DNA of 38,660 nucleotides from Candidatus Dojkabacteria bacterium (GCA_030583845.1 CP129478.1:473175-511834); one strand, 5' to 3'. Shown: positions 10,920-38,660, counted from the first letter of the stretch. A program made the numbers and translations. The notes: generated from the sequence alone by a model not told the origin.

Positions 10920-11654
10920 ATGGCAACCGAAACTAAAGCAAAAACAGAAAAAACGAAGAGCTCTTCCAACAAAGCCAAAACCGAAATTTCAGAATTGGCA
11001 AAAATTCTTTCAGGCGAAGCGGCACTTGAGAAGAAGAATGCCGAAATAGAGCGATTGAAGAAGGAAGCAGTGCAGAAGCAGAAGGCAAAGCAGCGCTCGC
11101 AGGTAAAGAGCGGCGAGCTTATCCTCGATCCCGAGCAGTATGTGAACCCTATCTCATCCCCTGAGAAAGTCGTCCAGAAGATCGAGCTGTATAGCTGGGA
11201 GGCTCCAATCCGCACCAAATTCGTATTTGATAAGCGATTGTTTCTGGTCGTTGTGGCGATCGCTTTAGGATTTGTTCTCTACCTCGCGGTTCTCGGCCAG
11301 TATGGCCTGATGTTCGCCATAATTGCTCTGCTATTCTTCATATATGTAGCCGGTACAACCGAGCCGATCAACGTTGAGCACAGTATCACCACTCGAGGAA
11401 TCGACACTATGGATAAGTTGTACGAATGGTATATGCTCGAAAATTTCTGGTTCACCAATAAAAATGGTCAATACATGCTAATTGTGAGCACCCGTCTGCG
11501 CATGCCCCCGAATCTGATCATGCTGGCCAATCGCGAGGAGATGTCGGCAATCTTTGTATTGCTTCAGGATAGGTTGCTTTACCGCGACGTCCGCAAACAG
11601 GGCTCAATCGAGCGCACAACCTATGGGGAGTATATCCCGATGGAGAAGATCTAA
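10920..11654 (+). CDS. Hypothetical membrane protein (244 aa) with a Lys/Glu-rich N-terminal region and two central TM helices
   Basis: ORF in the track. It starts 19 nt after the previous gene, so the two are probably co-transcribed. The TM pair is LFLVVVAIALGFVLYLAVL / LMFAIIALLFFIYVAG. Confidence 0.7.
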   Translation: MATETKAKTEKTKSSSNKAKTEISELAKILSGEAALEKKNAEIERLKKEAVQKQKAKQRSQVKSGELILDPEQYVNPISSPEKVVQKIELYSWEAPIRTKFVFDKRLFLVVVAIALGFVLYLAVLGQYGLMFAIIALLFFIYVAGTTEPINVEHSITTRGIDTMDKLYEWYMLENFWFTNKNGQYMLIVSTRLRMPPNLIMLANREEMSAIFVLLQDRLLYRDVRKQGSIERTTYGEYIPMEKI

Positions 11655-14509: not shown

Positions 14510-17332
14510 CTATACAACTGCAACACCTAATATTTGCTCAAAAACTTCTTTGCCTAAGTGCTGAACCAACCAGTGATCCTTCTTAATCGTGACAGGGTCA
14601 CAGATCGTATGATCATATTTCTCTCTGTATTCATTTATCCCCAGCGCCACTATTGTGAATAGCGCAAAATCATTTACAGCACTACTCCCAAAGTATCCAC
14701 TAATAAGTTTAGAAATGACTACTGATTTTAAATCTCCTATTATCTTTAATATGAAACTTCGTGGATTGCGATGATACAATTTATGGAGATCTTCGTAACC
14801 TTGCCCACCCCAAGCAAGACTCCTCATATTTTTTAAATGATCTAGGAGTAGACTTTCGTCTCGAATTTTGTACGGGTCGTTGCTGCGAAGAGAATTTTGA
14901 ATATCATTCACCAATACATTTATGCGTACTGGATTACCTGTACTATTATAGTAGGTATCTATTGCGGTATCGAAGTCAGTAAGCGACTTAGCCGGGAGAT
15001 ACCTTCGAATCTTTCCATTGCACAGACCGATTAAATTCTCTAGCCCAAGGAAAATTATCGTATTTAAGATGATGACATTTTTTCTAAGATCTAGATTGTC
15101 TGCATCTGGATCATCTGGATCTAGTTCTCCAGTATACGGGTTTCTCCCCAATATCTCCCGGAAGGATGTTATGTCAAACAAAGATTCACACAATCTTGAA
15201 AGAAGTAGAAGCTCTGGATAATGGCTGTATTCTTCTGGCAATCGCTCCATTTGGAACCCAACAGTCTCGTAATATCTCAGGAGTTCCTCAAGTATATACT
15301 TGGAATGATCAGCCGTAACTCTCCCTACCGGTTGTCCCAGTATTCGGCCGGTTCCTGCTACTCTAATTGCCTCCTTAAGTCCTCTTTCAATCATAGCTCT
15401 AGTGGGCGGCTCGATATGTCGAATCGCAATTTGACCAAATTCATTATTTACAACCGCACCTAGATTCGGATAATCAGCCCTGCACTCGCCAAAGAGTTTA
15501 AACAAGGTTCCTGGGGTACCGTACTCTCCATCCTCTCTATCTGAGTCCGAGCCTGATTTCCCTTCCATAAGGCCATGAAGGGCGATTATTAGATCCGCTA
15601 AGGTTTTAAACGATGTACTACTTGGAGTAGCGTCTACACGCCATGGCTTCCCAAGGTATATTATCGTCCTTGTATCAGTCTGTCTGATGTGCCTCGCAGT
15701 TTTGTTCTCTTGCCCTCGCAGCTGACTTTCAGGGGTGACGATTTGTGCCTCGATTGGTATATTCTTCCTAAATCTGAGCTCAATCTTTTCATTATCATCG
15801 GTGAGAACTGTAAGTGGCGTCATGCAGAAAGCGCATAAGAAATTTGCTCCAATGAACCTGGCTACCTGAGAGTTTTCATCGTGTACACCTATTTTCGAGA
15901 CGACATGACCCAGTCTACGTTGGTACAAATATTGATCCAACGAAGCTTCTGCACTGCTAGAGAGAGCTCCACTATAGCGAAATCTAATCCCAAATCTATC
16001 ATAATCATATGATGATTCTCCAATTATGGTCACGGCATTTAATATGGTTTCTCGAGTCACCGTATTTACAAGTCCAAGCGCCATTGCAAAGTGGGGGTGT
16101 ATTGTTCCACCACACAACTGTCGCAATTCACTTATGTGTAATTTCTTATGAGAAGGGATCTTCTCTATTCCCTCCATTATATTAAGCAAGTTATGGAAGC
16201 ATGTCGTCCGTCCAAACTTACCAAGCAACGTAGGCTGCATGCTGGTGAACAACTCTAGTCTTTCGTTAATCCGGGTCCAAATATCTCGGTCAAGTGGAAG
16301 CTCAAAATTACTATAACCTAAGCTGGAGAGAATTGGAGGCAGCTTTCTACGGGAATCTACGACTCTGTTAAAAGGTCCGACTAAATACTCAAGCGACAGC
16401 TCCTTAAGCCCTTGAGTCTGACTAATCCAGTAAGCCATCCTCCTCTTTTTCATGGTTTCCTTAGATGGGCTTAATGCTGCTACCCTGGATCCGAGAAATG
16501 CGAAAGAAGCCTCAGGCTCAGTGCTACTATCATTTGATAGGAGCGACGATGCATGCCTTGCTATCATCAAAGATAGCTCAGCCACAGTTAGCGTAGAGAT
16601 ATATCTCTTCGCAGCTGAGCCAAGGTTTGGTTCGAAGAACTTTTCAACTAACGAAGATCTGTATTCCTGATATTTTTCTGGATTTATTGCTGCCTCCGAG
16701 GCAGTGTAGATGATTGCGGAGATATCTCCCAACCTTCCATAGCAGATTGGGGCAAGAATATCTCTTCCAACAGACATTGCCATAACCCTTTCTTCTGCAG
16801 TGGTATCTGAGTTTTCCGAGCAAACCAGTCTCCTCTCAAGTCGTTTCAGATAGATGGCAGCTGGAGCAGCAATGCAGAAGATTGCCATCATTACTTCGTT
16901 CATTCTCTTCCTGTGACTCCGCTCCTGATCGATTAAGACTCCGTTTATTAGTCCGAGAAGTTCTTTAGGATCTTCGAGATTAGCGGTTCCTTCCACTAGT
17001 AAATCAATCAAGGTTGGGATGTCGTATGAGAGGTGTAGCTGTTCAAGGTACTGTATTTCGGTTGGCTTTGGTACAAGTAGTGAATCGCTATTGGAGCCAA
17101 GAACAAATTGTAGTAGTTGTGCACCTTGTGTTAAATAGAAGTCCACAAGCTCTTTTGGGAAACCGACAGTTGTAGTGAAGTAGTCATAATAAGTAGTATC
17201 CTGCGGAGCATGGTGGGAAAGATAGCCAGGGTATTCAATAGCCAGGGCGCGACAATCATTCAGAATTTCTTCGACTTCAAAGCATTCCTTATTACCAAGA
17301 GCTTCTCTCGGTTGATGGCTTGATGTGTCCAC
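14510..17332 (-). CDS. Large hypothetical cytoplasmic protein (940 aa); no recognisable family
   Basis: Uninterrupted 2.8-kb ORF with a GTG start, no TM or signal sequence, and no motif I can name. Confidence 0.8.
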   Translation of the reverse strand: MDTSSHQPREALGNKECFEVEEILNDCRALAIEYPGYLSHHAPQDTTYYDYFTTTVGFPKELVDFYLTQGAQLLQFVLGSNSDSLLVPKPTEIQYLEQLHLSYDIPTLIDLLVEGTANLEDPKELLGLINGVLIDQERSHRKRMNEVMMAIFCIAAPAAIYLKRLERRLVCSENSDTTAEERVMAMSVGRDILAPICYGRLGDISAIIYTASEAAINPEKYQEYRSSLVEKFFEPNLGSAAKRYISTLTVAELSLMIARHASSLLSNDSSTEPEASFAFLGSRVAALSPSKETMKKRRMAYWISQTQGLKELSLEYLVGPFNRVVDSRRKLPPILSSLGYSNFELPLDRDIWTRINERLELFTSMQPTLLGKFGRTTCFHNLLNIMEGIEKIPSHKKLHISELRQLCGGTIHPHFAMALGLVNTVTRETILNAVTIIGESSYDYDRFGIRFRYSGALSSSAEASLDQYLYQRRLGHVVSKIGVHDENSQVARFIGANFLCAFCMTPLTVLTDDNEKIELRFRKNIPIEAQIVTPESQLRGQENKTARHIRQTDTRTIIYLGKPWRVDATPSSTSFKTLADLIIALHGLMEGKSGSDSDREDGEYGTPGTLFKLFGECRADYPNLGAVVNNEFGQIAIRHIEPPTRAMIERGLKEAIRVAGTGRILGQPVGRVTADHSKYILEELLRYYETVGFQMERLPEEYSHYPELLLLSRLCESLFDITSFREILGRNPYTGELDPDDPDADNLDLRKNVIILNTIIFLGLENLIGLCNGKIRRYLPAKSLTDFDTAIDTYYNSTGNPVRINVLVNDIQNSLRSNDPYKIRDESLLLDHLKNMRSLAWGGQGYEDLHKLYHRNPRSFILKIIGDLKSVVISKLISGYFGSSAVNDFALFTIVALGINEYREKYDHTICDPVTIKKDHWLVQHLGKEVFEQILGVAVV

Positions 17333-19315: not shown

Positions 19316-21337
<2,022 letters not shown>

Positions 21338-21338
<1 letters not shown>

Positions 21339-24980: not shown

Positions 24981-25158
24981 ACCTCAATAATTTCCAACTA
25001 TATCATTGAATCTTTCTCATTATCCATGCTATCTTATTTGGAGAACATGGGGTATGTTAAAAAGGGAAGATATGGGATCGATAATTTGTTAAAAAGTTGA
25101 TATCAAAGCAGGGTTAATGATTCTCATGTAATAGTTTACTTGTGCTAAGTATCAATTA

Positions 25159-28100
25159 ATGAAATTTGTGAGTAAATTCAAATCCTTTTATGGCCGTTCT
25201 TCAAAGAGGGAACGGGCAGTAACAACCTCACTACTTGTTGTGGCAATCTTTTTTGTAACCGCCTTTATACTTTCGGCAACTGCTGAAGGTAGTTTTCTCG
25301 AACGAGTAGGCAGTTTTATCGATAGAGGTAACAACCCTGTAGGCGGAGTATTTGACCCGTCAGAGACGCCAGCGATAACATACTCTCCTTCTGCTAATGG
25401 ACCTGGTACGCCTTCTGTTGCGTTAACCTATCCACTTACGATAGATATGAATACTACACAGCCTGAAGACAGCATATACTACACAACCAACGGCACAGAT
25501 CCAACCGAATCCTCTACTCTCTATACCGGTCCTTTTCAGATCAGTACATCGATGACTGTGAAGGCTAGATCGTATGCTAATGGATATGATCCAAGTGCAA
25601 TTGCTTCAAATACTTTCTATATTGAGCTTCCAGCGAACATCGCTCCATCTGCTCAGGGTAAGAGCGTGAATACACTTGAAGATACTGCTGTAGACATCGC
25701 TCTTGAGTATACGGATTCTGATGGGCCAGGTCCTTACACTATCTCTATTGTTACTCAACCCACACTTGGATCTATTAATGTTACAGGGTCTTTCGTTACT
25801 TACACTCCTAATCCTGCAACTACTGCACCAAATACAGATTCATTTACATGGAAGGTGAATGATGGATATTCTGATTCGGGAACAGTGTCCGTTACTATAA
25901 ACATAGTATCCTCGCTTGCTTCAAATGCTGTTGTGATCGACCACGTCGCAGTGGATAATCTTTGGGACGATTTCTATGCTGACCAGTCTGCAATCAATGG
26001 TGCGGCGACGAAGCGGTTTTACTTTAGGCATGCTTCTGTTGGGGAGACGATATATAGAGGGCTGAAGTGTTTCGGCAACACAGCTCTCATTAATGGTAAT
26101 CGGTCAAATAGCTGTACAATCGGTTATACCCGTACTGGTACACACGGGGGGAGTGCAAACTCTCAGACTTTGACTCTTAGCTCTGGTTATTTTGGGACAG
26201 CAAATACCGGGATTATAGATTATTTTCGGTCTGCAACAATAACTAATAATACAGATGGAAGTAGTGGGGTAGTAATCTCAAACACAGGAACAACACTGAC
26301 TACGGCGCTTACAGGTGGAACTGATAATGACTGGGATGTGGGAGATTCATTCACAATAACCTATCAAAACTATCAAGATTTCTGGGACAGTGATTTCGCA
26401 GACCTCAGCGGCTTTATGTTTTTCTGGCACAACGGTATTGTTTCATGGCCGTACCCAGCTGATGCTGCTGTTAGTCCGCAAGGTGGACAGAATCCACCTT
26501 GGTATAATAAGACAAGTAATTTTATAGAGGGTACAGGCCGTACAATTGATGAAAACCTTGAAGATTATAGTCACCTGTATGCTGACACAACTGATGGAGG
26601 TGTAAGGGGGCTAGAGCTTGATGGCGATCTGACAGATGATTACGATGTATATTCGTATAAGCTAGGGTATGTCGATGGTATTACAGGAAGCAATACTGTT
26701 GACAACTTTTGGAACCCCAACCATGCACAGACAAATATCTCAGATCTGGAAGAGCTTTATGATGACTTGGATGCAGCTGGTTCAGATGCGACTATTGCGC
26801 TTTGGACCCTCGGCTTAGGTACACAGATAGGCACATCTGTTAGCGACTCTTTTAATGCGCAGCTTCGCAATTATGCGATAACGAATGATAAGTTTCTCTT
26901 CGATGTGGCGGATATATTTTCACATAGACCCGACGATGGGTCGCCTTGCACATACCTAAATCCGGCAGATGGCCTGGAGCACGAAGCTATGTGTCCGAAC
27001 TATTCGACAGATGCAGGTCACCTTAATGGCCTTGGAGGTCAGAGGGCGGCTCAGTCTATATGGCTCATGCTGGCTTGTATAGATGGGTGGTCGCTCTGCC
27101 CTGTTGTGGAGACTTCTACAAACAATCCTCCAAATTCGACTTTTACAGCAAGTGCTCTTACAGGTGATGCTCCATTAACGGTGAATTTTAACGGCTCGGG
27201 ATCCACAGATAGTGATGGTACTATTGTGACATACCGATGGAGCTTTGATGATGGAGTGATGCAGACCGGTAGTTCCCTTTCTCATCAGTTCACTGAGCCT
27301 GGTACATATACAGTCACTTTGACCGTGATTGATGACAATGGAGCGCAAGATGCTTTTTATAGAACGATAACTGTTACAGAGAATGGAGGGAATCAAGTCC
27401 CAGTACCATCTTTCACTATCGATACGATATCTGGTGAAGCCCCACTTACTGTAAATGTTAATGGTGGAGCCTCTTCCGATCCAGATGGGACAATCGCTAA
27501 TCCTGCAGGATATAGCTGGATTTGGGGTGATAACACTGCAAACGGGACTGGTCCAAGTACATCTCATGTATACAATTCGGCTGGAAATTACACACTTTCT
27601 CTCTTTGTTACTGACGACGATGGAAGTGTTTCGTCAAGAAGTGTGCAGGTCAGTGTCAGTAGTGCAGGAGCAAATCAAGCTCCAACAGCAGCTTTCACAC
27701 CTTCGCCTAGCAGTGGTACAGCTGCCCTGACTGTGAACGTCAATGCGAGTGCTTCCTCGGATTCAGATGGCACGATAGCAAGTTATTCATGGAACTGGGG
27801 TGATGCATCAGCTCTAGGTACAGGTCAGAATACAAGTCACCAGTATTCAAACCCTGGTGTATATACAATTGTACTAACGGTGACTGATGATGATGGAGCT
27901 ACAGATACAGCAAGCAGTAATATTACCGTGAACGCAGCTGGAGGAGGTGGTGGTGGCGGCGAGGTGGGAAATATGCTCCCCACGGCAATAATATCGATAA
28001 ACTCATATACGGTGTCGACTAATACTGTGACACTGGCTGCGAACCACTCATATGACTCTGACAGTACATCTATTACAAGTAGGGCTTGGGATCGTGACAA

Positions 28101-29607
28101 TGATGGGTTGTATGGAACGGAAGACACACCTGCGGAGCCGACAACTACGACTGTAAATCTGGTAGGGCTTGGCGCTGGCACACATACAGTAGGGCTTAAG
28201 GTGACTGATAATGAAGGGGCTACAGATACAACGACTATTACTTTTGAGTTAGGAGCGACTTCTGCGGAGCACGACTTCTACCCTTCACCAGGTTTCTTTA
28301 TATATAACCCTGCCTATCCGACTAGCCCACCTGCATCTGTTGTGAGATATGGAGAGCTCGTAGGCGGTACTGTAAATATTGCCTTCGCGCACAATCCATA
28401 CTCCTCAGACATTAATCAGAACCAAGCAAACGATGCGTGGAATGCAAATCCTACTGCTACTGGTAACGGTACAACATGTCAGGGAACTTCGGTTAACTGT
28501 ATCACTCTGTATGAGTGGGACTATCAAGGGGATGGGACGTACGATTGGTCCGGTTACTCAGCTGGAGTTCGCACAGTGGCTTTTACAGTTGCAGGAACTT
28601 ATACACCTACACTTCGTGTAACCGATAACAGTGGCAATCAATCAATCCTTTCCGGAACTCTTTACATAATCGATCCAAATGCAGGCGGAAATGCATCTCC
28701 AACAGCTTCATTTACTGCAACGCCTACATCAGGATATGATCCGCTCGATGTGGATGTGGATGCATCGGCTTCCTCAGATAGCGATGGCACAATAGTGTCA
28801 TACAGCTGGGATTGGGGTGATGGTACTCCAGACGGAAGTGGTGCCACTGCAACACACCAGTATTCATCTGCCGGAACTTATCTACTTACCCTTACGGTGG
28901 AGGATGATGAAGCGGCAACGGGTACATTTTCAAGAACCATAATAGTAAGTGAATATAATAGCCCACCAGTAGCGGCATTTACACCAAATCCCACCTCTGG
29001 GATGGAGCCTCTAATAGTCTCTGTAGATGCTAATGCCTCAACAGACAGTGATGGCACGATCTCGGGCTACAGTTGGGATTGGGGTGATGGCACGCCAGAC
29101 AGTTCGGGTGTAAGCACGAGTCATGAGTATACTAACGCGGGCAACTTCATGATCACTCTGACCGTGACAGATAATGAAGGTGCGACCGATACACAGACAG
29201 CAAATATCAATGTAACAGCGATACCGAATGTACCTCCTACAGCCAGCTTTACGATTAACACAACTACTGGAAATGCACCGCTAGCAGTTACAGTAAACGG
29301 TACTGGCTCAACAGATAGTGACGGTAGCATTTCTAGCTATAGCTGGAACTGGGGTGATGGCACATCCAACAGTAGTGGTGTGACTCCGGCAGCGCACACA
29401 TACACAAGTGGAGGAAGGTTCTTGATCACACTCACAGTTACAGACAACGATAGCGATACAGATACCTTCCAGCGTGCTGTAAGCGTGTGTGGCAATGTAT
29501 CACCTTCTTCATCGAGATTCTACCATGTGATCAATTCTGGATTGACACTGCGTGATATTCAGATAACTGCTTATACGGAGTGCGGACCTAGGGATTTGAT
29601 TAACTAG
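25159..29607 (+). CDS. Giant N-terminally anchored exoprotein (1482 aa): chitobiase-C-like, cadherin/Ig-like, ~380-aa possible esterase-like domain, and eight PKD-like repeats
   Basis: A basic N-terminus plus one hydrophobic helix (LLVVAIFFVTAFILSATA). Other elements are DSIYYTTNGTDPTESSTLYTGPF and VNTLEDTAVDIAL...FTWKVNDG. The PKD repeats have the core APLTVNxxxSxSxDSDGTIxSYSWxWGDG...H.Y...G.Y...LTVTDxxGAxD. Confidence 0.9.
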   Translation: MKFVSKFKSFYGRSSKRERAVTTSLLVVAIFFVTAFILSATAEGSFLERVGSFIDRGNNPVGGVFDPSETPAITYSPSANGPGTPSVALTYPLTIDMNTTQPEDSIYYTTNGTDPTESSTLYTGPFQISTSMTVKARSYANGYDPSAIASNTFYIELPANIAPSAQGKSVNTLEDTAVDIALEYTDSDGPGPYTISIVTQPTLGSINVTGSFVTYTPNPATTAPNTDSFTWKVNDGYSDSGTVSVTINIVSSLASNAVVIDHVAVDNLWDDFYADQSAINGAATKRFYFRHASVGETIYRGLKCFGNTALINGNRSNSCTIGYTRTGTHGGSANSQTLTLSSGYFGTANTGIIDYFRSATITNNTDGSSGVVISNTGTTLTTALTGGTDNDWDVGDSFTITYQNYQDFWDSDFADLSGFMFFWHNGIVSWPYPADAAVSPQGGQNPPWYNKTSNFIEGTGRTIDENLEDYSHLYADTTDGGVRGLELDGDLTDDYDVYSYKLGYVDGITGSNTVDNFWNPNHAQTNISDLEELYDDLDAAGSDATIALWTLGLGTQIGTSVSDSFNAQLRNYAITNDKFLFDVADIFSHRPDDGSPCTYLNPADGLEHEAMCPNYSTDAGHLNGLGGQRAAQSIWLMLACIDGWSLCPVVETSTNNPPNSTFTASALTGDAPLTVNFNGSGSTDSDGTIVTYRWSFDDGVMQTGSSLSHQFTEPGTYTVTLTVIDDNGAQDAFYRTITVTENGGNQVPVPSFTIDTISGEAPLTVNVNGGASSDPDGTIANPAGYSWIWGDNTANGTGPSTSHVYNSAGNYTLSLFVTDDDGSVSSRSVQVSVSSAGANQAPTAAFTPSPSSGTAALTVNVNASASSDSDGTIASYSWNWGDASALGTGQNTSHQYSNPGVYTIVLTVTDDDGATDTASSNITVNAAGGGGGGGEVGNMLPTAIISINSYTVSTNTVTLAANHSYDSDSTSITSRAWDRDNDGLYGTEDTPAEPTTTTVNLVGLGAGTHTVGLKVTDNEGATDTTTITFELGATSAEHDFYPSPGFFIYNPAYPTSPPASVVRYGELVGGTVNIAFAHNPYSSDINQNQANDAWNANPTATGNGTTCQGTSVNCITLYEWDYQGDGTYDWSGYSAGVRTVAFTVAGTYTPTLRVTDNSGNQSILSGTLYIIDPNAGGNASPTASFTATPTSGYDPLDVDVDASASSDSDGTIVSYSWDWGDGTPDGSGATATHQYSSAGTYLLTLTVEDDEAATGTFSRTIIVSEYNSPPVAAFTPNPTSGMEPLIVSVDANASTDSDGTISGYSWDWGDGTPDSSGVSTSHEYTNAGNFMITLTVTDNEGATDTQTANINVTAIPNVPPTASFTINTTTGNAPLAVTVNGTGSTDSDGSISSYSWNWGDGTSNSSGVTPAAHTYTSGGRFLITLTVTDNDSDTDTFQRAVSVCGNVSPSSSRFYHVINSGLTLRDIQITAYTECGPRDLIN
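27121..27934 (+). repeat. Three tandem PKD-like coding repeats (~85-90 codons each), followed by a poly-Gly run at 27941-27961
   Basis: Repeat starts are at ~27121, ~27390 and ~27669. They share the blocks APLTVN, DSDGTI, W.WGD and LTVTDDDG. Confidence 0.8.
28684..29485 (+). repeat. Three tandem PKD-like coding repeats at the C-terminal end of the first giant gene
   Basis: Repeat starts are at ~28684, ~28960 and ~29225. The motifs are SPTASFTATPTSG..., PPVAAFTPNPTSG... and PPTASFTINTTTG..., each followed by S.DSDG.I..YSW.WGDGT. Confidence 0.8.
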
Positions 29608-29670
29608 GTTGAAAAAATCGGGGAAATTTCTTACCGTATATGCATAGGACTAGGTTTATTTGCTCTGCCC

Positions 29671-32600
29671 ATGTGGATGAAGGTTATTGGACTAGATAAT
29701 AAAGCAAAAGTCGCTACCGCTGTAATATCGCTGGGTTTTCTTGTTTATCTTTTATCTTATCCTTCACTGGTTTTAGACTCTCCTGAGCTTATGAAGGCAC
29801 CGGAGCAGAGCCTCGGATTGGGCACAGTGAGCGAGTTTCTGACAACTCAAGGATTGAATGTACCATTTGTTGTTGATAAGTTTCCCGACGATAGCTTGTA
29901 CAAATCTGCAGTGACATGGTTTGGAGATGTTCACGAAGATCCTTCGCAAGCGATACAGAATAACTCGGTACTTACAAGGGTCTACTATTACGATAAAGGG
30001 GCTGGAGCCAACGGCGATGATGAGTTTGACAGAGGATTGCAGATGTTCTCGCATGTAATTGACAGGAGGCTTTATTACGATACTACCAACCCCTATGACG
30101 ATCCACAATTATGGGACTCAGTTAGCTACTACTTCTATAAGAGCAATTCACCTGGAAGCACGCTTAACAGCAATGCATATAAAATAACGTTAGGTTTTAA
30201 CGGCAATCAGACCCTCTATACGACAAATCATCTGAAGGCTTGGCAAGATGCTAATAATGATGGCTTATGGGAGCCAAAAACAATTGATGGATACTGTCCG
30301 GATGGCTGTAATATAAGAGTTTTTAGCAATTACGAGGGCAATGGTACGAATGCTGCATCGGATAACCGTGGTTGGCGTATGCAGATCGACCTCCCATTCA
30401 ATTTCTTCGCGAACGACATCATGTATAAGCCGGATCCAGGTGATATCTGGCGCTGGGCTATAGAGGTAAACGATAAGGATAGCTCTGGTGGCAGTGTGTC
30501 ACAGGAAAGATGGCCTACAGGCGCCAATCTCACTAACCCCTCGACATGGGCACAGATGCGCTTCGGCGATGACAATTTAACAGCAGACGATGAAGTGTAT
30601 GTGCCGGATACAGCAGGGACGAGCGGCACTGTAACAATCATTAACAATGTGAATGGTGCGGTCACAGAAGATATCGCTGTAGGTGGTGGTAGTCTATGCG
30701 GTGCACTCACCCAAGAGGAGAATGTCGATGACTTCAGGTATTCGAGTGGTGCATTCGCGGCAGATGGATGGGGCTATCGTATCTACGACGATGCAACCCT
30801 GCCAGCACAATACGAATTTCTGAATATACAAAATCAGAACAATGTCGCAGATTGGCCATGCTTCTCTCGACCATATTTTAAATTTCCAACCACACCTGTA
30901 CCTAGCGGCAAAGTGATCGAGTCGGCGACTTTGAAGCTATTTCAGTTTGGAAATGCGGGGCCATCGCTTTATGGCGCGCCAAAAACCTCCCCGACGATTG
31001 TAGAATTAAACGGAGAGACATATGGTTTGGCCGGGCATGAGGATGGGGAGTTCAGCGGATTTTATCGATCGGGAGGTGTGTGGGATCAAGATGGGCCGAT
31101 CACTGCAGGAATTGCGAGTGGGACATTTGGCCAGGAAGCGGATCCCGACTTCATTAGAACCACGCTCTTTGACGGGGCTAACGGACGGTTCCTTCTAGTG
31201 GGCAGAGAAGATGGTACATTCTACGGCGCTGAGTGGGATGGAGACTCATGGGCTTCGGCTCCGATAATTGCCGGTTTAGGTGATCTAGGTGGGTACACAT
31301 CACCGACACTGTTTACCTACAACAGCAACCTTTACACGATAGTAAGTCGTTACAATTCGGGTGGTTCCAATTACGGCCTCCTTGCTTATCGATGGAATAG
31401 TGTTGGGCAGACTTGGGAGGCACAAACTGGTGTCTCAAGTATGATTAATGGACTTGAATCGGTCAGCTCTTCAGGCCGGATGGACCCAGATGTATTTACC
31501 CTCTCTGGCACACTTTATATGATCATAGGAAACCAGAATGGGACGATGACGGGATATCAATTTAATGGGACAGCCTGGTCTTCAAGTAGTGCGATAGTTT
31601 CGGGTTTGCAAGATGTCGGAGATGAGGCAAAGCCCGATTACTTCGTCCATAACGATGGGTCGGGAAGCGATGAATACCTTCTTGTCGGGGAACAAGATGA
31701 CCAGTACTACATATACTCGTTTAACAGCTCGAATCAGTGGCAACTCTTGAAGTATCATCCGATGAACAATGGCCTCTGGGCTGCTGTCTCATTGCTGCAA
31801 GTGTATGAGGTCAATGGAGATGTTGAGGATACAACGATGAATTGGAACAATGCCCCACAGGTTACCCAGAATGCCGCTGCAGCCTATGCGTGTGACATCC
31901 GTGAATATCATAATGCAGGTTATGACGATCAGGAGGTGCACCAGCCACAATGTGAAAATTCAAACCTCACTATGGCGATGGATGGAAGTGTAGCTCATGC
32001 GAGAATCGACATCGATGTGACAAGGCTTGTCGCTGAAGCATATGAAGATAGTAGATCACCCGCGAAATTTGCCGTCTATACAGCCGATCTGCCTCTACAC
32101 TCTGGCAAGTATTTTAGGAGCTCTGAAACGTCTGATCCTAATTTTAGGCCTCAATTAACCATAGTGTATGGTGAGCCGGGAACTCCAAACCAGGCTCCGA
32201 CCGCTCAATTTACACAAAGCGGCAGGGTAGGCATCTCACCATACCAGGTGACATTCAATGCATCTGCTTCGACAGATAGTGATGGTACGATTGCAAGCTA
32301 TAGTTGGAATTTTGACGATGGTAGTAGTGGGACAGGGCAGCAGGTGAGCCATACATTCAACGGGGCAGACAGCTATGATGTAACGCTCACGGTAACCGAC
32401 AATGATGGAGCCCAATCAACCGTGACTTATCTTGTATCGACCTGTCAGGTAGTGCCTGCAAATCAGGCTCGCGGACGGTGGTGGAAGATACGACCAAACT
32501 ATCAGTTCAGTGGGAATGTGCTGAATTGTGGGCCAGTAATGGGCTCAGCTGATGGTGAGAATATGGCTATTAATAGCTCGGATGTTGAGGAGATAATTAA

Positions 32601-32829
32601 GACGCTTGAGTTGGTGGAGGAGCCTACTGATAGTGAAGATAGAAGCGTCGCAGAGAATACTCTTGCAATGATAAATCTGGTCGGTGCAAGCAGTGATTCC
32701 GCCTCTGATGTGAGCTATCTGATAAATAAGGAGGAAAGGAGTTCCAAAGATTTTCGCTACTCGAGTTTCTATACAGTACTCTATTCACCCAGAATTATTA
32801 ATGAGTTAGTTCAACCGCCTAGATTATGA
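29671..32829 (+). CDS. Giant N-terminally anchored exoprotein (1052 aa) with a five-fold ~50-aa repeat block (probable beta-propeller), one PKD-like repeat and an acidic C-terminal tail
   Basis: The hydrophobic N-terminal helix is VATAVISLGFLVYLLSYPSLVL. The repeats lie at ~30998-31790. The PKD-like repeat lies at ~32190-32440 (APTAQFTQSGRVGISPYQVTFNASASTDSDGTIASYSWNFDDG). TGA stop. Confidence 0.9.
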   Translation: MWMKVIGLDNKAKVATAVISLGFLVYLLSYPSLVLDSPELMKAPEQSLGLGTVSEFLTTQGLNVPFVVDKFPDDSLYKSAVTWFGDVHEDPSQAIQNNSVLTRVYYYDKGAGANGDDEFDRGLQMFSHVIDRRLYYDTTNPYDDPQLWDSVSYYFYKSNSPGSTLNSNAYKITLGFNGNQTLYTTNHLKAWQDANNDGLWEPKTIDGYCPDGCNIRVFSNYEGNGTNAASDNRGWRMQIDLPFNFFANDIMYKPDPGDIWRWAIEVNDKDSSGGSVSQERWPTGANLTNPSTWAQMRFGDDNLTADDEVYVPDTAGTSGTVTIINNVNGAVTEDIAVGGGSLCGALTQEENVDDFRYSSGAFAADGWGYRIYDDATLPAQYEFLNIQNQNNVADWPCFSRPYFKFPTTPVPSGKVIESATLKLFQFGNAGPSLYGAPKTSPTIVELNGETYGLAGHEDGEFSGFYRSGGVWDQDGPITAGIASGTFGQEADPDFIRTTLFDGANGRFLLVGREDGTFYGAEWDGDSWASAPIIAGLGDLGGYTSPTLFTYNSNLYTIVSRYNSGGSNYGLLAYRWNSVGQTWEAQTGVSSMINGLESVSSSGRMDPDVFTLSGTLYMIIGNQNGTMTGYQFNGTAWSSSSAIVSGLQDVGDEAKPDYFVHNDGSGSDEYLLVGEQDDQYYIYSFNSSNQWQLLKYHPMNNGLWAAVSLLQVYEVNGDVEDTTMNWNNAPQVTQNAAAAYACDIREYHNAGYDDQEVHQPQCENSNLTMAMDGSVAHARIDIDVTRLVAEAYEDSRSPAKFAVYTADLPLHSGKYFRSSETSDPNFRPQLTIVYGEPGTPNQAPTAQFTQSGRVGISPYQVTFNASASTDSDGTIASYSWNFDDGSSGTGQQVSHTFNGADSYDVTLTVTDNDGAQSTVTYLVSTCQVVPANQARGRWWKIRPNYQFSGNVLNCGPVMGSADGENMAINSSDVEEIIKTLELVEEPTDSEDRSVAENTLAMINLVGASSDSASDVSYLINKEERSSKDFRYSSFYTVLYSPRIINELVQPPRL

Positions 32830-32833
32830 TAGT

Positions 32834-35800
32834 ATGGAAAAGCTTATAATGGTCAACAAACTGTTGAAGAATCGAAAAATCCAGCTTCTGATTGCTGTCC
32901 TGCTCGTGGTAACGCTAGGGGGTGTTCTACTTACCCAATCAAGGATTAATTCAAATTTTATCAGATCAACTTTAGGACTAAATAACCCTAGCGAGGAGGG
33001 TGAATCTAACAGTGACGACACCCAAAGTGGTGTAGTTCAGCCCGATGCTGAGCCAGTGCCTTCTGGGGTACCAAATTCAGATTCAGGCAATAGCAGTGGC
33101 CGTGGAGAGAGCGGTCCAGAGGGTGCTCCTGTAGATATACCAAACGATGTACCGCAGGCCAACAATACATTTGCCGTCACCAGTATGAACGAGGCGGTGT
33201 CTATTACTCTTAGCTACGTTGATTACAAAGAGGGCTCATCAGGCGCAAACAGAATATTCAATATTACGGGTAACCCATCTAATGGTAGCCTCTCCGGCAC
33301 AGGCTCAACAAGAACTTATACTCCGAGTAGCAATTTCTCAGGTACCGACACGGTTACATGGACTGTATCTGACGGTACATACACCTCGACCCCGGGAACG
33401 GTGAAAATTGTAGTGCAAGATGAAACATATACCGATGGCTGGTATACAGTCGGGGCTAATTCTCAACGAACATCGTGGGTTGGAGAAAGCGTTACAAACT
33501 CAACTGGTATGCTTTGGTATACACCGGTTCAAGCATATATAACGCAACATACGCAAATAATTGCCAGCGATGGGAAGCTTTTCATCAGTACTGCTAAGGG
33601 CTTGTATGCTTTAGATGCTACAACAGGCTTGGTTGCATGGAAGTTTAATACCGAGATGCCGATTGGCAATTCGCCAACGGTATTTGACGACGTAGTATAT
33701 GTCGGTGGATATGATAAAAAGTTATATGCACTGGATGTCTCAACTGGTACACAGCTGTCATCGGGTAGCTGGCCTTTTGCTGACGCTACTGCCGGGTACA
33801 GCGCCAATCCGCTAGTTATCCGAGATTCACACACAAACAACCAGACGGTAATAATAGCTCCAAATCGAGATGGATATGTATACTTTATCGGTGGGAAGAA
33901 TCATCCGAACGAAGGCGATTCATTCCGTACAATAAATATCGGTGCTCCGATGTCATTTTCACCGGCCTATAAAGATGGGATCGTCTACTTTGCGGCTCAA
34001 GATAACTATGCCTATGCATACAATGTCTCAACTGGTGCACAGATCTGGAAATCGCCCAAGCTAAGAGGTGATGGATTTCAATCTTACTTTCCAGTCATTT
34101 ATGATGACATGCTTTTCCTGAGCCGTGCTCATGATGAAGTTTATGAAGATACTGGAAATCGTGTAAGCTGCACATGGAATGTAAATGAGGACAACCCAGG
34201 AACTGTCGCTCCGGGGAAAATGCTCGGGACAATTACCACTCCGTCAAATTGGAGCAATGGCAACCCAATAACTTCATTTGGTAATACGCTTCTTGAGTGC
34301 TTGGAAGATAACATCAATAATGCAAACCCATCTGCTGGCGGGCATCAGCACAAGAGTCATATACGAGGCTATATAGTGCTTGATATGGATAACGGCACGG
34401 AAGTGAGGATGTGGGATCATGATAGCGATGGATTCTTGGAGTATTTCCCAGCGATCATGGATGGCACGGGGTCGGGTAACAGACAGCCCGGTCTTGTTGA
34501 CCCCGGAGGAAATCTTTTCTATTCAACCCAGTCTGCTTTATGTTGCTCAGATGCGAAGGGAATGATCTACGGCTGGGATAAAGATTATCCGTATAATTTC
34601 TCAATGACAGCTGGGTATCCGTCAAATTTCGCATTTCGCGGTAATACCTCTGTGGATCCAAATGGCGATACGATGACCTATTCATGGAATTTTGATGATG
34701 GGACTACATCTACTTCGCAAAATCCAAGCAAGGGGTACAAGCCGGTAAAGCATACGTACAATGTCACACTCACAGTGACTGACTCACAGGGTAATTCCTC
34801 AACAGATACACAGATGCTCAAAGTCCCGTACGACCCCAGTGAAAATCAGTATCCGATCGCAAGATTCACAGCCAATAGCTATTCTGGCAGCGCTCCACTA
34901 AATGTAAGTTTTAACGGCTCAACCTCTTGGGATCCTCTAAACACAAACGCACTTACATATGCTTGGGACTTTAACGGTGATGCTATAACTGACTCGACTG
35001 CCTCGGCACCTTCATATAACTTCTCATCAAATGGGACGTACAATGTAACGCTAACTGTAACCGATCCCGAAGGACTTACAGACACCGCTACAGGTAGGAT
35101 AGTTGTGGGCAGTAGCCCGGGTAATCAACCTCCATGGGCGCGAATAAATATGCTATTTACAGGCATTACTTGGCAAGGAGCTGGTTGGCATGCTATGGCT
35201 GAGCCTCAAGCGCTTTCTGGGGGTGGGAATGTAATATACCGCAATCTTTGCTGCGATCGAATCGGCGACTGGTCTTCAATATACAATTCGAGCAACCTAC
35301 CTAGGCAATCTGGAACATTATGGGACTACAATAATTCGCTTAATTTACAAACAGACGATGGCTATCTTGCATATTGGCAACGATATCCGTTTACATCAGG
35401 TCTTTACAATTGGTACCAAGGCTATGAGGATGAATATGTCGACAACTCCTATGATGAATATACATATGTCGCGACAAACGGTATCTATAACAACCATGGA
35501 GACCAGAATCCAATCATTCCGTATAATGGCAGGCTTTATGTCCACCGCGGAAATACCATCATCGCTTTTGGCCCGGGTGGCGGATCTGCTACTGAAAATC
35601 CACATGTTACAGCTGTGGATGTTGAGACTACTACGGCTGTAAATACTTCAGCATTGCAGATCAAGCTCGAGACTGAAGTCGCTAAAATACTCAATGTATA
35701 CGACTCACTTGGCAAGGTTGGGAACGCAAGGTTCTTGAGACCAGGCGATTACACTATGTCACAGTGGAGTTATGAAAGTATCGTTGGTGAATATTTCCAA

Positions 35801-38660
35801 AATCCTGCAGACAACATTGTGACATTGATAAGGGCTTACCCCCATGTATCCGAGCCGTTGCAATTGAGGCTTAGCAACTACCTTCAAGACTACTACACTG
35901 CTTATTTTGCTACGAATACATATACCGATGTCGGATGGATTGAAGGCTCGGAAAGAGAGGCTTTTGCACTTGCCGATGATTTCCAAGCAAGCATCAATGC
36001 GAATGCAGCCTCGTTAAGATCAGCAATAACTACTCAGCGAACAACTTTCCCGCAAAGGAATATATATGCAATGTATAAATACGCAAAATGGCTCGATGAT
36101 ACAGAGGTAGGCGACTCTCAGGATATTCTTGACGTCTATAATGATGCCAGAGCGAGAATTCGCTATCCGTTTAGCTATATGAACTCTCTAGGGTGTGTAA
36201 ACGGAGCGACTGGGATTTCATACAATGTGTCAATACCGATATGGCACTACTACGGAGAACACCCGTATGAGCTAAATCAGGATCTTGCAGGGTACTACGG
36301 ATTTAGAGAACTACAGATATTAGCAGGTCAAACAAATGACTCGCAGTATCCCGCAGCAAATATCCAGAGTCAATTGGATGCTCTCATCCAGCACAAGAAG
36401 GATACATTTACACGCGGTAGCTGGTGGATAGACAACAGTTATGTACCAGGTGCAATGCCCTGTCTTCCAACTGAAACCAGAAACTACCAGAAAAAGGAGT
36501 TTGATGTATCACGTAACTTCGTATGGATGGTCCCTGAAATGGCTACCTATCTCAAAGGAAATATTGAGATGAAGGAAGCAATCCATGAATATGACATCGT
36601 TGGGGCATATTGGTTTGCTTCAAAGTATGAAGGAATGGTAGGAGAGGGGGTTCGGTCCGCACTGTTCAATTATGAAGGGATGTTCAAAGCGAAGGCTTAT
36701 ATTGAAGGATCAACAGCATCTGATCTATACGAGTATCTTGACACCCCTGCATTCGCTGTCGGTGATATGTTCTATATTGATAACATTATTACAGTCTTGG
36801 AGACGAATAATACGATTCCAGGCTCTAATTCTGCTCCCCAAGTCGATGCAGGTGGTACATTTAGTGCTGCTATAAACAGGGAGTATAAGCTTGAAGGATA
36901 TGCTACTGACGATGGTCTGCCAAATTACCCAGGCACGGCTACCTTTACCTGGAGCAAGCAAAGCGGTCCGGGTACAGTTACTTTCTCAAATATAAATGAT
37001 GCTGATAGCAAGGTTACCTTTGATCAGCAAGGTACCTATGTACTACGCTTAACTGTGTCTGACAGTGCTGTCACGGCATATGATGATGTGACTGTAAATG
37101 TTGATAATATCCCACCTGTAGCAAGCTTTACTGCAACTCCTACTGGTGGCTTCATACCGTTGCTTATACAATTTGACGCATCTGGATCTGTAGATAGTGA
37201 TGGATCTGTTGTCTCGTACGCATGGGAGTTCGGTGATGGTGGTGTCGGCAGTGGGGTTACCACCTCACGTACATATAATCACATTGACGATTTCACAGTG
37301 CGTTTGACAATCACTGATGACGATGGGGCGACACATACAACTACTTCAATAGTATCACCTACCGATGTTGGCTATCCAACATCAGTATTCACTGTAAGTC
37401 CGACGACAAGCGGTACTGCTCCATTCTCAATTAATGTTGATGGAACCGGATCATATGACACAGGAGGCTCAATCGCTTCATATCAGTGGAGGTGGGGTGA
37501 CGGTGAGTCTGCAGGCTCGGGCTCGACCTCCTCTCACACCTACACCATTCCGGGGACATATCTACTTGAATTGGTCGTAACAGATAATCAAGGTATTCAA
37601 GATTCATCGTCGACTGTAATAACTGTCACACAGGGCGGAGGAGGTGGCAATCAGTCGCCTAACGCAAGCTTTACAGCTAATCCACAATCGGGGACGGCAC
37701 CTCTTACTGTAACAGTGAATGGTGGTGGATCCACTGATGGTGACGGAACGATATCAAGCTACTCATGGAACTGGGGAGATGGTACATCCAATGGAACTGG
37801 AGCTAGCACCACTCATCAATATACAAATGCTGGGACGTATACAATTACCTTAACAGTAACAGATAATGGCGGAGCTACAGATACAGCTGCAATAAGTATT
37901 ACTGTGAACAACGCCGGTAATCAGCTCCCAAATGCCAGTTTTACTACAAACCCGCAAAGTGGTACAGCCCCACTTGAAGTATTGGTGAATGGTAGTGGTT
38001 CAACAGATAGTGATGGGACAATTGTAAGCTATTCATGGAATTGGGGTGATGGAACATCTAACGGAAGCGGGGTAAATGCAAGCCACGAATACGCAGACCC
38101 TGGTAGTTATACAATAACATTGACAGTTACGGATAACGGAGGTGCCACAGATACGGCAACGACGAACGTTACCGCAACCTCAACCACTGGTGAAAATATG
38201 CATCCCACAGCACAAGCATACTTTGCCAATTACAGCACCACAAATAATCGCACCGTATTTACCGGCACCCGTTCATTTGATCCAGATGGGACTATTGTCA
38301 CAAAAGAGTGGGACTTTAACAATGATGGGACATTTGATGCAACTGGGAACTCGGTAAACTTCACAACAACGGTTGACGGAACATATGTTGTCACGCTGAA
38401 AGTGACCGACGATGATGGTGGGGAGGATATAGACACGCTCACATTTATTCGGAACTCTGTTGGTGGTCATCTATACTACCCGATAGCCAACTATGATATC
38501 TCCTCTGCGGCCAATTCAACTCTGGACTATGGGCAATTGGTTAATGGCTCTGTGACGATGAACTTTATGCATCACCCTTATTCAGGTGATATGTTGCAAA
38601 CAACTTCGCCTTGGGTACCGTCTTCAGCCAGAATTACCTTGTACGAGTGGGATTTTAATG
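32834..38660 (+). CDS. Giant N-terminally anchored exoprotein, 5' partial (1942 codons in the window, no stop): cadherin/Ig-like, PQQ-type beta-propeller repeats, PKD-like repeats, ~560-aa repeat-free domain, then further PKD-like repeats
   Basis: Missing from the ORF track because it has no stop. I translated the frame from ATG 32834 (MEKLIMVNKLLKNRKIQLLIAVLLVVTLGGVLL...) and met no stop through 38659. Frame checks at 34685, 35102 and 37223 agree. PQQ-like blades are LYALDATTGLVAWKF, KKLYALDVSTGTQL and YAYAYNVSTGAQIWK. PKD cores lie at 34640-35110 and 37111-38450. Confidence 0.85.
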   Translation, partial: MEKLIMVNKLLKNRKIQLLIAVLLVVTLGGVLLTQSRINSNFIRSTLGLNNPSEEGESNSDDTQSGVVQPDAEPVPSGVPNSDSGNSSGRGESGPEGAPVDIPNDVPQANNTFAVTSMNEAVSITLSYVDYKEGSSGANRIFNITGNPSNGSLSGTGSTRTYTPSSNFSGTDTVTWTVSDGTYTSTPGTVKIVVQDETYTDGWYTVGANSQRTSWVGESVTNSTGMLWYTPVQAYITQHTQIIASDGKLFISTAKGLYALDATTGLVAWKFNTEMPIGNSPTVFDDVVYVGGYDKKLYALDVSTGTQLSSGSWPFADATAGYSANPLVIRDSHTNNQTVIIAPNRDGYVYFIGGKNHPNEGDSFRTINIGAPMSFSPAYKDGIVYFAAQDNYAYAYNVSTGAQIWKSPKLRGDGFQSYFPVIYDDMLFLSRAHDEVYEDTGNRVSCTWNVNEDNPGTVAPGKMLGTITTPSNWSNGNPITSFGNTLLECLEDNINNANPSAGGHQHKSHIRGYIVLDMDNGTEVRMWDHDSDGFLEYFPAIMDGTGSGNRQPGLVDPGGNLFYSTQSALCCSDAKGMIYGWDKDYPYNFSMTAGYPSNFAFRGNTSVDPNGDTMTYSWNFDDGTTSTSQNPSKGYKPVKHTYNVTLTVTDSQGNSSTDTQMLKVPYDPSENQYPIARFTANSYSGSAPLNVSFNGSTSWDPLNTNALTYAWDFNGDAITDSTASAPSYNFSSNGTYNVTLTVTDPEGLTDTATGRIVVGSSPGNQPPWARINMLFTGITWQGAGWHAMAEPQALSGGGNVIYRNLCCDRIGDWSSIYNSSNLPRQSGTLWDYNNSLNLQTDDGYLAYWQRYPFTSGLYNWYQGYEDEYVDNSYDEYTYVATNGIYNNHGDQNPIIPYNGRLYVHRGNTIIAFGPGGGSATENPHVTAVDVETTTAVNTSALQIKLETEVAKILNVYDSLGKVGNARFLRPGDYTMSQWSYESIVGEYFQNPADNIVTLIRAYPHVSEPLQLRLSNYLQDYYTAYFATNTYTDVGWIEGSEREAFALADDFQASINANAASLRSAITTQRTTFPQRNIYAMYKYAKWLDDTEVGDSQDILDVYNDARARIRYPFSYMNSLGCVNGATGISYNVSIPIWHYYGEHPYELNQDLAGYYGFRELQILAGQTNDSQYPAANIQSQLDALIQHKKDTFTRGSWWIDNSYVPGAMPCLPTETRNYQKKEFDVSRNFVWMVPEMATYLKGNIEMKEAIHEYDIVGAYWFASKYEGMVGEGVRSALFNYEGMFKAKAYIEGSTASDLYEYLDTPAFAVGDMFYIDNIITVLETNNTIPGSNSAPQVDAGGTFSAAINREYKLEGYATDDGLPNYPGTATFTWSKQSGPGTVTFSNINDADSKVTFDQQGTYVLRLTVSDSAVTAYDDVTVNVDNIPPVASFTATPTGGFIPLLIQFDASGSVDSDGSVVSYAWEFGDGGVGSGVTTSRTYNHIDDFTVRLTITDDDGATHTTTSIVSPTDVGYPTSVFTVSPTTSGTAPFSINVDGTGSYDTGGSIASYQWRWGDGESAGSGSTSSHTYTIPGTYLLELVVTDNQGIQDSSSTVITVTQGGGGGNQSPNASFTANPQSGTAPLTVTVNGGGSTDGDGTISSYSWNWGDGTSNGTGASTTHQYTNAGTYTITLTVTDNGGATDTAAISITVNNAGNQLPNASFTTNPQSGTAPLEVLVNGSGSTDSDGTIVSYSWNWGDGTSNGSGVNASHEYADPGSYTITLTVTDNGGATDTATTNVTATSTTGENMHPTAQAYFANYSTTNNRTVFTGTRSFDPDGTIVTKEWDFNNDGTFDATGNSVNFTTTVDGTYVVTLKVTDDDGGEDIDTLTFIRNSVGGHLYYPIANYDISSAANSTLDYGQLVNGSVTMNFMHHPYSGDMLQTTSPWVPSSARITLYEWDFN
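37111..38170 (+). repeat. Four tandem PKD-like coding repeats in the third giant gene, split by a poly-Gly run at ~37633-37647
   Basis: Repeat starts are at ~37111, ~37375, ~37650 and ~37920. The last two are very similar to each other (NASFTANPQSGTAPLTVTVNGGGSTDGDGTISSYSWNWGDGTSNGTG versus NASFTTNPQSGTAPLEVLVNGSGSTDSDGTIVSYSWNWGDGTSNGSG). Confidence 0.8.

Follow-up and report, generated by a model that had tools for sequence, protein, structure and literature searches.

Three adjacent genes for giant PKD-rich proteins with SGNH-like, CBM96-type, and propeller-toroid-like heads in a Candidatus Dojkabacteria genome: a candidate system for binding and processing an extracytoplasmic polysaccharide

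We analyzed a 38,660-nucleotide (nt) stretch of a Candidatus Dojkabacteria bacterium genome (GCA_030583845.1 CP129478.1:473175-511834; hereafter called the window, with positions counted from its first letter) and characterized three adjacent genes, g1, g2, and g3, whose giant products combine arrays of PKD domains with nonrepetitive domains, here called heads. With roughly even confidence, we propose that the three proteins are a Sec-exported, cell-retained set that binds and processes an extracytoplasmic polysaccharide, the activity, substrate, export, and retention all being predicted from sequence. In this proposal, the SGNH-type domain of g1 would remove or transfer O-acyl groups on the glycan, the CBM96-type β-sandwich and five-bladed repeat of g2 would hold the polymer, and the β-propeller and α/α-toroid-like domain of g3 would cleave or remodel the glycan chain. 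We favor binding and processing of a polysaccharide over generic adhesion because homologs of the heads lie mostly inside surface-polysaccharide loci.

All three genes, and every feature of them described below, are on the plus strand. g1 (25159-29607; 1482 amino acids [aa]) encodes an N-terminal helix, CHB_HEX_C and Big_9 domains, the SGNH-like head, eight PKD domains, and a Cys-loop tail, and g2 (29671-32829; 1052 aa) encodes an N-terminal helix, an N-domain, a split CBM96 domain, a single PKD domain, and a Cys-loop with a further tail. The g2 start in the public record (P0001) lies two codons downstream, giving 1050 aa. g3 (32834-38660) is open at the window end, and recovery of its 3' end gave a full protein of 2313 aa (P0026). 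On recomputation, we obtained the same figures as the initial annotation, namely, three same-strand open reading frames (ORFs) of 1482, 1052, and at least 1942 codons (4476 inside the window) with spacers of 63 nt (g1-g2) and 4 nt (g2-g3). With g3 completed, the trio takes up ~14.6 kb, or about 1.4%, of the 1,036,382-bp contig.

The view that the heads belong together comes from their homologs in other phyla. An exhaustive HMMER search with the helical domain of g3 yielded 462 clusters (50% identity) at an E value of ≤1e-3, and the typical member of this family is a ~950-aa protein consisting of a signal peptide, the propeller, and the helical domain, with the signal peptides of these homologs reading as classical. 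When species-representative genomes were scanned with the same domain, 79 loci were obtained, mostly from Chloroflexota (Anaerolineae and relatives), the others being from Microgenomates, WWE3, Woesebacteria, Roizmanbacteria, Paceibacterota, several Gammaproteobacteria metagenome-assembled genomes (MAGs), and one Aenigmarchaeota MAG. A separate g1-head gene was present in 22 of the 79 loci (adjacent in 21, always on the same strand), and a g2-like gene encoding the N-domain plus CBM96 (~590 aa) was present in 11 (adjacent in 10). Besides, the heads occur as fusions: g3-like sequences are joined to CHB_HEX_C/Big_9 and the SGNH head in P0051, P0066, and P0062 (locus L050), and to the g2 N-domain and CBM96 in P0069, P0080, P0082, P0112, P0122, and P0167. 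We regard this adjacency across phyla, together with repeated fusion, as strong evidence that the three heads are likely to function together. C-terminal type I dockerins were found in 3 of 9 g3-like proteins and in 3 of 29 g1-head homologs. One of the fusions, P0062 (L050:4733-15577), from a MAG labeled Gammaproteobacteria, is a single 3615-aa ORF that joins nearly every conserved extracytoplasmic component (a BNR-like region, TIG, CHB_HEX_C and Big_9, the SGNH-like head, the propeller-toroid, a DUF5060/glycoside hydrolase [GH]-like module, and FN3-like repeats).

The gene neighborhoods point to glycans. In Chloroflexota, the most frequent neighbors are GT2 glycosyltransferases (39 loci), a BNR_2-like protein (33 loci), and the Wzt and Wzm components of an ABC exporter (25 loci each). 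Further neighbors are GT4, Acyl_transf_3, radical SAM, epimerase, AMP-binding, hexapeptide acetyltransferase, Asn synthase, Wzy_C, PMT_2, DegT, and Bac_transf proteins, and a DUF5060 protein is also among the neighbors in this glycan context. Judging from this gene content, the Chloroflexota loci are surface-polysaccharide biosynthesis and export loci. The loci from candidate phyla radiation (CPR) bacteria contain arrays of one to three g3-like genes, an SGNH-like gene, and genes for further secreted proteins of ~900 aa, of which one has DUF5060, and no biosynthesis genes were found in the CPR loci with g3-like genes. In Anaerolineae-type loci among L007-L085 (e.g., L022, L031, L035, L040, and L042), a pair of SGNH-like and propeller-toroid genes, flanked by two operons for glycan biosynthesis and opposite to them in strand, is directly adjoined by an Acyl_transf_3 gene, which hints at a split AT3/SGNH system for O-acetylation.

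The head of g1 (25906-27126; aa 250-656, 407 aa) gave no sequence match in Pfam, NCBIfam, or PDB. Its putative catalytic residues are S293, N566, D582, D618, and H621, and these positions stand out in the homologs: the Ser of a [D/H]-[A/R]-S-V-G motif (S293) is kept in 28 of 28, the Asn (N566) in 28 of 29, and both an Asp and the [E/D]618-x-G-H621 element in 29 of 29. Hence, the block I Ser, the block III Asn, and the block V D-x-x-H of SGNH enzymes are all found in the g1 head. Among the 29 homologs, there were seven weak Pfam matches (five to Lipase_GDSL_2, one to Lipase_GDSL, and one to PC-Esterase). When the AlphaFold model of the head was searched against PDB using Foldseek, nearly all of the top 50 matches were SGNH enzymes, at weak E values of 5e-3 to 0.2, and they included Ape1 (a peptidoglycan O-acetylesterase), PatB, sialate O-acetylesterases, and CE3 esterases. 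On the conserved residues and the model taken together, we accept the head as a predicted divergent SGNH domain, with S293/D618/H621 as its putative triad, and the esterase-like domain guessed at in the initial annotation is thereby supported. The head resembles the SGNH O-acetyl esterases and transferases (Ape1, PatB, OatA/OafA, CE3, and sialate O-acetylesterase) in the Ser, the Asn, the [D/E]-x-x-His, and the modeled α/β core, whereas its ~400 aa include large insertions, it forms part of a PKD protein of 1482 aa, and it has no AT3 partner in the window.

On its N-terminal side, the g1 head is preceded by a CHB_HEX_C_1/Fn3_assoc domain (aa 92-149; E = 2.5e-15) and a Big_9 Ig-like domain (aa 160-247; E = 4.3e-08), which together span 25432-25899 and both exceed the curated Pfam cutoffs. 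It is followed by the array of eight PKD domains (27127-29481; aa 657-1441) and by a 41-aa tail with the Cys-loop C-x8-R-x21-CGP (29482-29604). Within the SGNH domain there is a ~40-aa lineage-specific insert (26245-26358; aa 363-400, NNTDGSS...GGTDNDWDVGDSF), whose unit, N-x-TDGS...GGT-x-NDWD-x-x-D, recurs as tandem repeats in the unrelated uncharacterized proteins P0017, P0020, P0021, and P0023-P0025. This unit belongs to no Pfam family and had no match in a search of PHROGs; the label "phage-like" was dropped since no PHROG phage family matched.

In g2, the CBM96/DNRLRE β-sandwich is present in two pieces (30571-32175; aa 301-432 and 704-835). The protein scored 48.7 bits against NF033679 (cutoff, 34) and 29.3 and 37 bits against CBM96 PF24517 (cutoff, 26), and the spliced sequence gave an E value of 3.8e-09. 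The domain is thus not a single contiguous ~160-aa β-sandwich, as aa 433-703 intervene; in the ~590-aa homolog P0003 it is contiguous. The intervening 270-aa insertion (30967-31779) consists of five tandem repeats of ~50 aa in which P, G, W, and G are invariant. The five-fold repeat seen in the initial annotation is therefore real, and it probably forms a five-bladed β-propeller-like lectin module, a fold suggested by the number and the length of the repeats. The sandwich is preceded by the N-domain (29845-30570; aa 59-300), which had no Pfam or PDB match and is kept in the ~590-aa proteins named "DNRLRE domain-containing." It is followed by the single PKD domain (32194-32436; aa 842-922) and by a 130-aa tail, in common with g3, that comprises the Cys-loop and a further ~100 aa (32437-32826). 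PDB sequence searches with the three heads gave only weak DNRLRE matches, from the family profile of g2 to 8wab and 7vbo. CBM96 was originally defined as an alginate-binding β-sandwich module, and DNRLRE domains are known from polysaccharide lyases, disaggregatase, and S-layer proteins (PMC9971899). Compared with the CBM96 of Dp0100 (PDB 7VBO and 8WAB), g2 passes the NCBIfam and Pfam cutoffs but is split by the 270-aa five-repeat insertion and preceded by the N-domain of ~240 aa.

The g3 protein contains a PQQ-like β-propeller (33416-35548; aa 195-586 and 757-905), which scored 52.7 bits against PQQ_2 (PF13360; cutoff, 27.6). The profile of the g3 family found BamB, PQQ-like propellers, and designed propellers in PDB. 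Two PKD domains (34592-35101; aa 587-756) are inserted in a loop of the propeller. Although g3 is thus similar to the BamB-like and PQQ-like eight-bladed propellers, it differs from them in the two inserted PKD domains and in the constant fusion to the helical domain, and we found no evidence for a dehydrogenase. Identification of g3 as BamB itself was rejected, with 43.3 versus 285 bits and 31.6 versus 423 bits, far under the equivalog cutoffs. In a late part of the propeller, the consensus of the g3 family has two adjacent cysteines within a CCDR motif (about aa 800 of g3 in the window, NLCCDRIG).

Following the propeller, we delimited an all-helical, α/α-toroid-like domain (35549-36928; aa 906-1365, ~460 aa). 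The region had been described in the initial annotation as a ~560-aa repeat-free domain, which we correct: that segment comprises the final ~150 aa of the propeller together with the ~460-aa helical domain. A model based on a 36-sequence alignment was all-α (pLDDT, 76.8; pTM, 0.80), and Foldseek returned weak matches only (best E = 0.027; TM-score, 0.3-0.38, about 0.35), the recognizable ones being mostly α/α toroids, i.e., complement TED, GH76, GH105, GH8, and a glycosaminoglycan (GAG) lyase. It is plausible from the model that the domain belongs to the α/α-toroid fold class, with no close solved relative. The family alignment shows no variation at E1271, D1303, or D1311. Loci for exopolysaccharides commonly encode a toroid hydrolase or lyase, such as BcsZ or AlgL. 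The g3 domain resembles the α/α-toroid hydrolases and lyases (GH76, GH105, GH8, and GAG lyases) in being all-helical, in its weak structural neighbors, and in its polysaccharide-locus context elsewhere, but no significant structural or sequence match to them was obtained and catalytic residues are not assignable.

The N-terminal part of g3 consists of a Ser/Gly/Pro/acidic low-complexity linker (32951-33142; aa 40-103) after the hydrophobic segment and a Big_9/Cadherin_5 Ig-like domain (33143-33409; aa 104-192), which exceeds its curated Pfam cutoff. An Ig-like unit and a PKD array (36929-38660), with five complete PKD domains and one cut by the window end, follow the helical domain, and the protein continues outside the window with another three PKD domains and a Cys-loop tail of 148 aa. 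The chitobiase-C-like, cadherin/Ig-like, and PQQ modules that the initial annotation had recognized from the sequence correspond to the CHB_HEX_C_1, Big_9/Cadherin_5, and PQQ_2 matches given above.

Several features are common to the three proteins. Each has exactly one Kyte-Doolittle hydrophobic segment, located at the N terminus behind a short basic stretch, in agreement with what had been described for them: 25210-25281 (aa 18-41) in g1, the only segment with KD19 of >1.6 and followed by ATA|EG; 29704-29775 (aa 12-35) in g2; and 32876-32935 (aa 15-34) in g3. The ATA|EG of g1 is a possible signal-peptidase site at which the protein could be cleaved, and the uncharged N-terminal stretches of 19 to 22 residues favor a signal-anchor, so that all three may be N-terminally anchored. 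Type IV pilin-like N termini were ruled out, as no G|[FM]xxxE motif was found on reading. Hydropathy analysis detected no C-terminal hydrophobic segment and no sortase- or exosortase-type C-terminal sorting signal in g1 to g3, and Pfam and NCBIfam scans of the three proteins detected neither SLH or other known S-layer anchoring domains nor dockerins or cohesins. We presume display outside the membrane of a cell that is probably wall bearing and without an outer membrane.

PKD units were counted with a hidden Markov model (HMM) built from the three proteins themselves. We found 8 in g1, 1 in g2, and, in the part of g3 inside the window, 7 strong units plus one weak Ig-like and one truncated unit, so that the earlier count of 8+1+8 was essentially right; the complete g3 has 10 strong PKD units and one weak Ig-like unit. 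Scores against the PKD families (PF18911/PF00801) were 355, 71, and 353 bits for g1, g2, and g3, respectively, versus a gathering cutoff of 27, and the motif Y-x-W-x-[FW]-[GD]-[DG] is present in most units. An Ig-like domain is roughly 3.5 to 4 nm long. The arrays, with 8, 1, and 10 to 11 Ig-like domains, could serve as extended spacers, of about 30 to 40 nm for g1 and g3. In all three proteins and their orthologs, the last PKD domain is followed by a Cys-loop, C-x8-R-x19-21-C-G-P, in which the C, the R, and the CGP are invariant, and a related ~100-aa tail follows it in g2 and g3. The Cys-loop of the three C termini might act as a common docking or assembly element. The order of parts is also the same: the heads adjoin the N-terminal helix, and the PKD arrays occupy the distal, C-terminal side. 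Two topologies are compatible with this order: either the N termini are cleaved off and the protein is retained through its C-terminal motif, with the head then outermost, or the heads stay near the membrane and the PKD arrays extend outward.

Synteny of the trio was looked for in related genomes, and the order g1-g2-g3 is kept in two assemblies, L006 and L086. The L006 proteins have amino acid identities to those of the window of 79% and 60% for two g1 copies, 69% for g2, and 67% for g3. The tandem g1 paralogs of the relatives (L006:1-9978 and L086:1-5485) are about 61% identical to each other, and each tandem copy has 10 PKD units versus 8 in the window; gene duplication and a change of repeat number thus appear to have occurred within the g1-g2-g3 lineage. 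The three insertions in the heads, i.e., the SGNH mini-domain, the CBM96 five repeats, and the two propeller PKD domains, are confined to this small lineage (the window, L006, and L086). Two scans of JGI metagenome contigs for g2 relatives found nothing further. We suppose that the trio originated as lineage-specific, PKD-extended forms of small secreted proteins that are elsewhere encoded side by side or fused.

As to the target of the proposed polysaccharide-processing set, we consider a polymer that does not belong to the cell itself, for instance the envelope of a partner cell or a matrix, somewhat more likely, because no glycan-synthesis genes lie beside the trio, because the CPR-type loci are similar in this respect, and because the genome is only ~1 Mb. 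Several points weigh against this proposal in whole or in part. A catalytic role for the g3 helical domain is a guess, given that its structural matches are not significant, and for the g1 head, the GDSL matches of the homologs have E values of 0.0014 to 0.1, none at the gathering score, while the model, built from a shallow alignment, has a low mean pLDDT of 55 (70 to 87 in the α/β core). Because the heads adjoin the N-terminal helix instead of capping the distal end of the PKD arrays, the simple view of a head carried by a stalk is in doubt, and the arrangement fits poorly with a stalk-displayed enzyme. No glycan genes able to point to the substrate occur within the 38.7-kb window. Many of the 79 loci are from related Anaerolineae and are not independent. 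In those loci, moreover, g1-head and g2-head neighbors never occur together outside the lineage of the window, and this mutual exclusivity leaves a three-way complex undemonstrated elsewhere. Finally, the biosynthetic context in Chloroflexota favors a glycan of the cell's own over a foreign one.

The last point leads to a possible, though doubtful, alternative, in which the trio acts on the envelope of its own cell and matures the surface polysaccharide or S-layer glycan, through O-acetylation by AT3 and SGNH proteins and trimming or length control by g3, with the PKD arrays spanning the wall. Indeed, the Chloroflexota g3-like and g1-head genes lie between glycan biosynthesis and export operons, and an Acyl_transf_3 gene is found in 10 of the 22 loci having a separate g1-head gene. 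Split AT3-SGNH O-acetyltransferases are known in OafA, OatA, and PatA/PatB. The proximity of Acyl_transf_3 to the g1-head homologs recalls these AT3-linked systems, and PatB was among the Foldseek matches of the g1 head. On the other hand, no homolog of a glycosyltransferase, AT3, Wzx/Wzy, or Wzm/Wzt was found in the window or directly downstream in L006, and the CPR loci with g3-like genes are arrays of large secreted proteins that lack biosynthesis genes.

We think it unlikely that the three proteins are pure adhesins whose heads are noncatalytic recognition modules serving only attachment to a partner cell or polymer. Adhesins indeed typically contain PKD, Big_9/cadherin-like, and CBM-type domains, epibiotic Patescibacteria need multiple adhesins (PMC10633639), and host binding has been proposed for giant Ig-rich surface proteins of DPANN archaea (PMC10266531); the helical domain of g3 is likewise without a demonstrable active site. 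However, the Ser, Asp/Glu, and His set of the SGNH head is conserved in its homologs, which binding alone would not need, and relatives of the heads lie in enzyme-rich glycan loci and, in L050, are fused to a DUF5060/GH-like module.

There appears to be only a slim chance that the trio has a structural role in a surface layer and binds no particular ligand. Archaeal S-layer and surface proteins are known to contain DNRLRE domains and PKD repeats (PMC9971899; PMC2447325), and the common C-terminal motif could mediate lattice or wall attachment. Nevertheless, three different heads with enzyme-like conservation would be unexpected in a lattice protein, g1 to g3 lack the known S-layer anchoring domains looked for above, and the homologs are ordinary secreted proteins of ~350 to 1000 aa, some with dockerins.

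Lastly, the long ORFs are not an assembly artifact, because the DNA of the PKD copies has diverged (the longest exact repeat within 25159-38660 is 17 nt, and pairwise identity is at most ~80%, over short stretches), because Logan short-read contigs from four independent samples match 13628-38660 at 99.98 to 100%, and because the orthologs in L006 and L086 have the same architecture. The possibility of chimeras from collapsed or misjoined PKD repeats, which the initial annotation had itself raised, is essentially refuted, since the one sign of it, four Logan contigs ending together in g1 at 29355-29358, falls in the sole break in contig coverage (29335-29358), where the flanking contig sets overlap and agree with the window. 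That common stop of all the contigs over g1 marks a graph branch point in the last PKD unit; there is no long exact repeat for it in the window, and the branch may be due to strain variation or to a similar k-mer located elsewhere in the genome. Samples with this organism are DRR779145/6, DRR859400, and SRR24881069.

The reading of the trio as a polysaccharide-binding and -processing set can also be compared with known surface systems. Giant Ig-rich surface proteins are recognized in ultra-small symbionts, and a role at the cell-cell interface has been proposed for them (PMC10266531, PMC10633639, and 10.1101/2023.11.21.568195). The giant Ig/PKD proteins (nanohaloarchaeal "SPEARE," Omnitrophota giant genes, and Saccharibacteria adhesins) are similar to the trio in their very large size, predicted export with N-terminal Sec signals, long Ig-like arrays, and ~1-Mb genomes, whereas the trio has SGNH, CBM96, and propeller-toroid heads, is encoded by three genes instead of one, and has no link to an ATPase or a type IV secretion system. 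No homology beyond the PKD/Ig repeats was found between them, and none was specifically searched for. In cellulosome display, the dockerins at the ends of some g3 and g1-head homologs are comparable to the common C-terminal module of the trio, but the trio lacks dockerins and cohesins and its Cys-loop is unrelated in sequence. PamR of the CPR Pam pilus (NF058578) was also considered and rejected: the scores were 80 and 36 bits versus 300, with matches only in the PKD units, an Ig-fold artifact. Furthermore, a C-terminal hydrophobic segment and pam genes are absent, and the description of the pam operon does not fit.

Homologs of the trio carry the public names "hypothetical," "PQQ-binding-like beta-propeller repeat protein," "BamB," and "DNRLRE domain-containing." In the literature, we found no description of a propeller-toroid family with a constant SGNH-like or CBM96-like partner, and no characterized system with a three-gene, PKD-extended architecture, in line with the initial annotation, which knew of none. 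The parts come from known superfamilies (PKD, SGNH, CBM96, and the PQQ-like propeller), and it is the partnership and the three-gene PKD-extended form that we did not find described. The trio had been taken for a dedicated surface apparatus. What stands of this is an operon-like set of putatively exported multidomain proteins with nonrepeat heads; the heads are not idiosyncratic, having homologs elsewhere in glycan loci. Going further, we offer as a speculation, and a rather doubtful one, that the propeller-toroid protein and its SGNH-like or CBM96-like partner make up a widespread unrecognized polysaccharide-modifying system, probably a new family of glycan-active enzymes, which would have been rebuilt here as giant PKD-extended proteins, with which the cell would bind a partner's envelope polysaccharide, remove its acyl groups, and open it.

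Genomes of ~1 Mb spend little DNA on dispensable functions, yet this one gives the share stated above to three surface proteins. If the trio processes the surface glycan of a partner or of its own cell, the three proteins would be direct candidates for attachment, feeding, or envelope building. The heads also connect three uncharacterized families that are neighbors or fusion partners across phyla, and the 462-cluster g3 family is now mislabeled "BamB" or "PQQ-binding-like." Thus, a large group of hypothetical proteins in the polysaccharide loci of Chloroflexota and CPR bacteria now has a concrete hypothesis that can be tested.

With regard to the locus, g1, g2, and g3 look like one operon and would be cotranscribed; significant internal terminators were looked for in the trio and none was found. 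A promoter-like site, TTAAAA-17-GATAAT (25057-25085, plus strand), lies within the 178-nt gap 5' of g1 as a weak consensus match and is suggestive only, because the count of such sites in the region is not above the shuffled expectation. A horizontal-transfer island is unsupported, as the GC content of the trio (0.43 to 0.48) is only slightly above that of the rest of the window. Upstream in the window are gatCAB, gdhA, an AI-2E transporter gene, dnaA/dnaN, and several ORFs without any Pfam or NCBIfam family. The latter are 14510-17332 (minus strand, 940 aa), 525-2099 (minus, 524 aa), 12139-12981 (minus, 280 aa), 10920-11654 (plus, 244 aa), and 20697-21338 (minus, 213 aa), and those of 940 aa and 213 aa are called as genes in independent Logan contigs too. 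dnaA and dnaN lie at 5895-9689 (5.9 to 9.7 kb), and the cumulative GC-skew minimum is near 16 to 17 kb. The region of the replication origin probably lies within the window, and the skew turns at some distance from dnaA.

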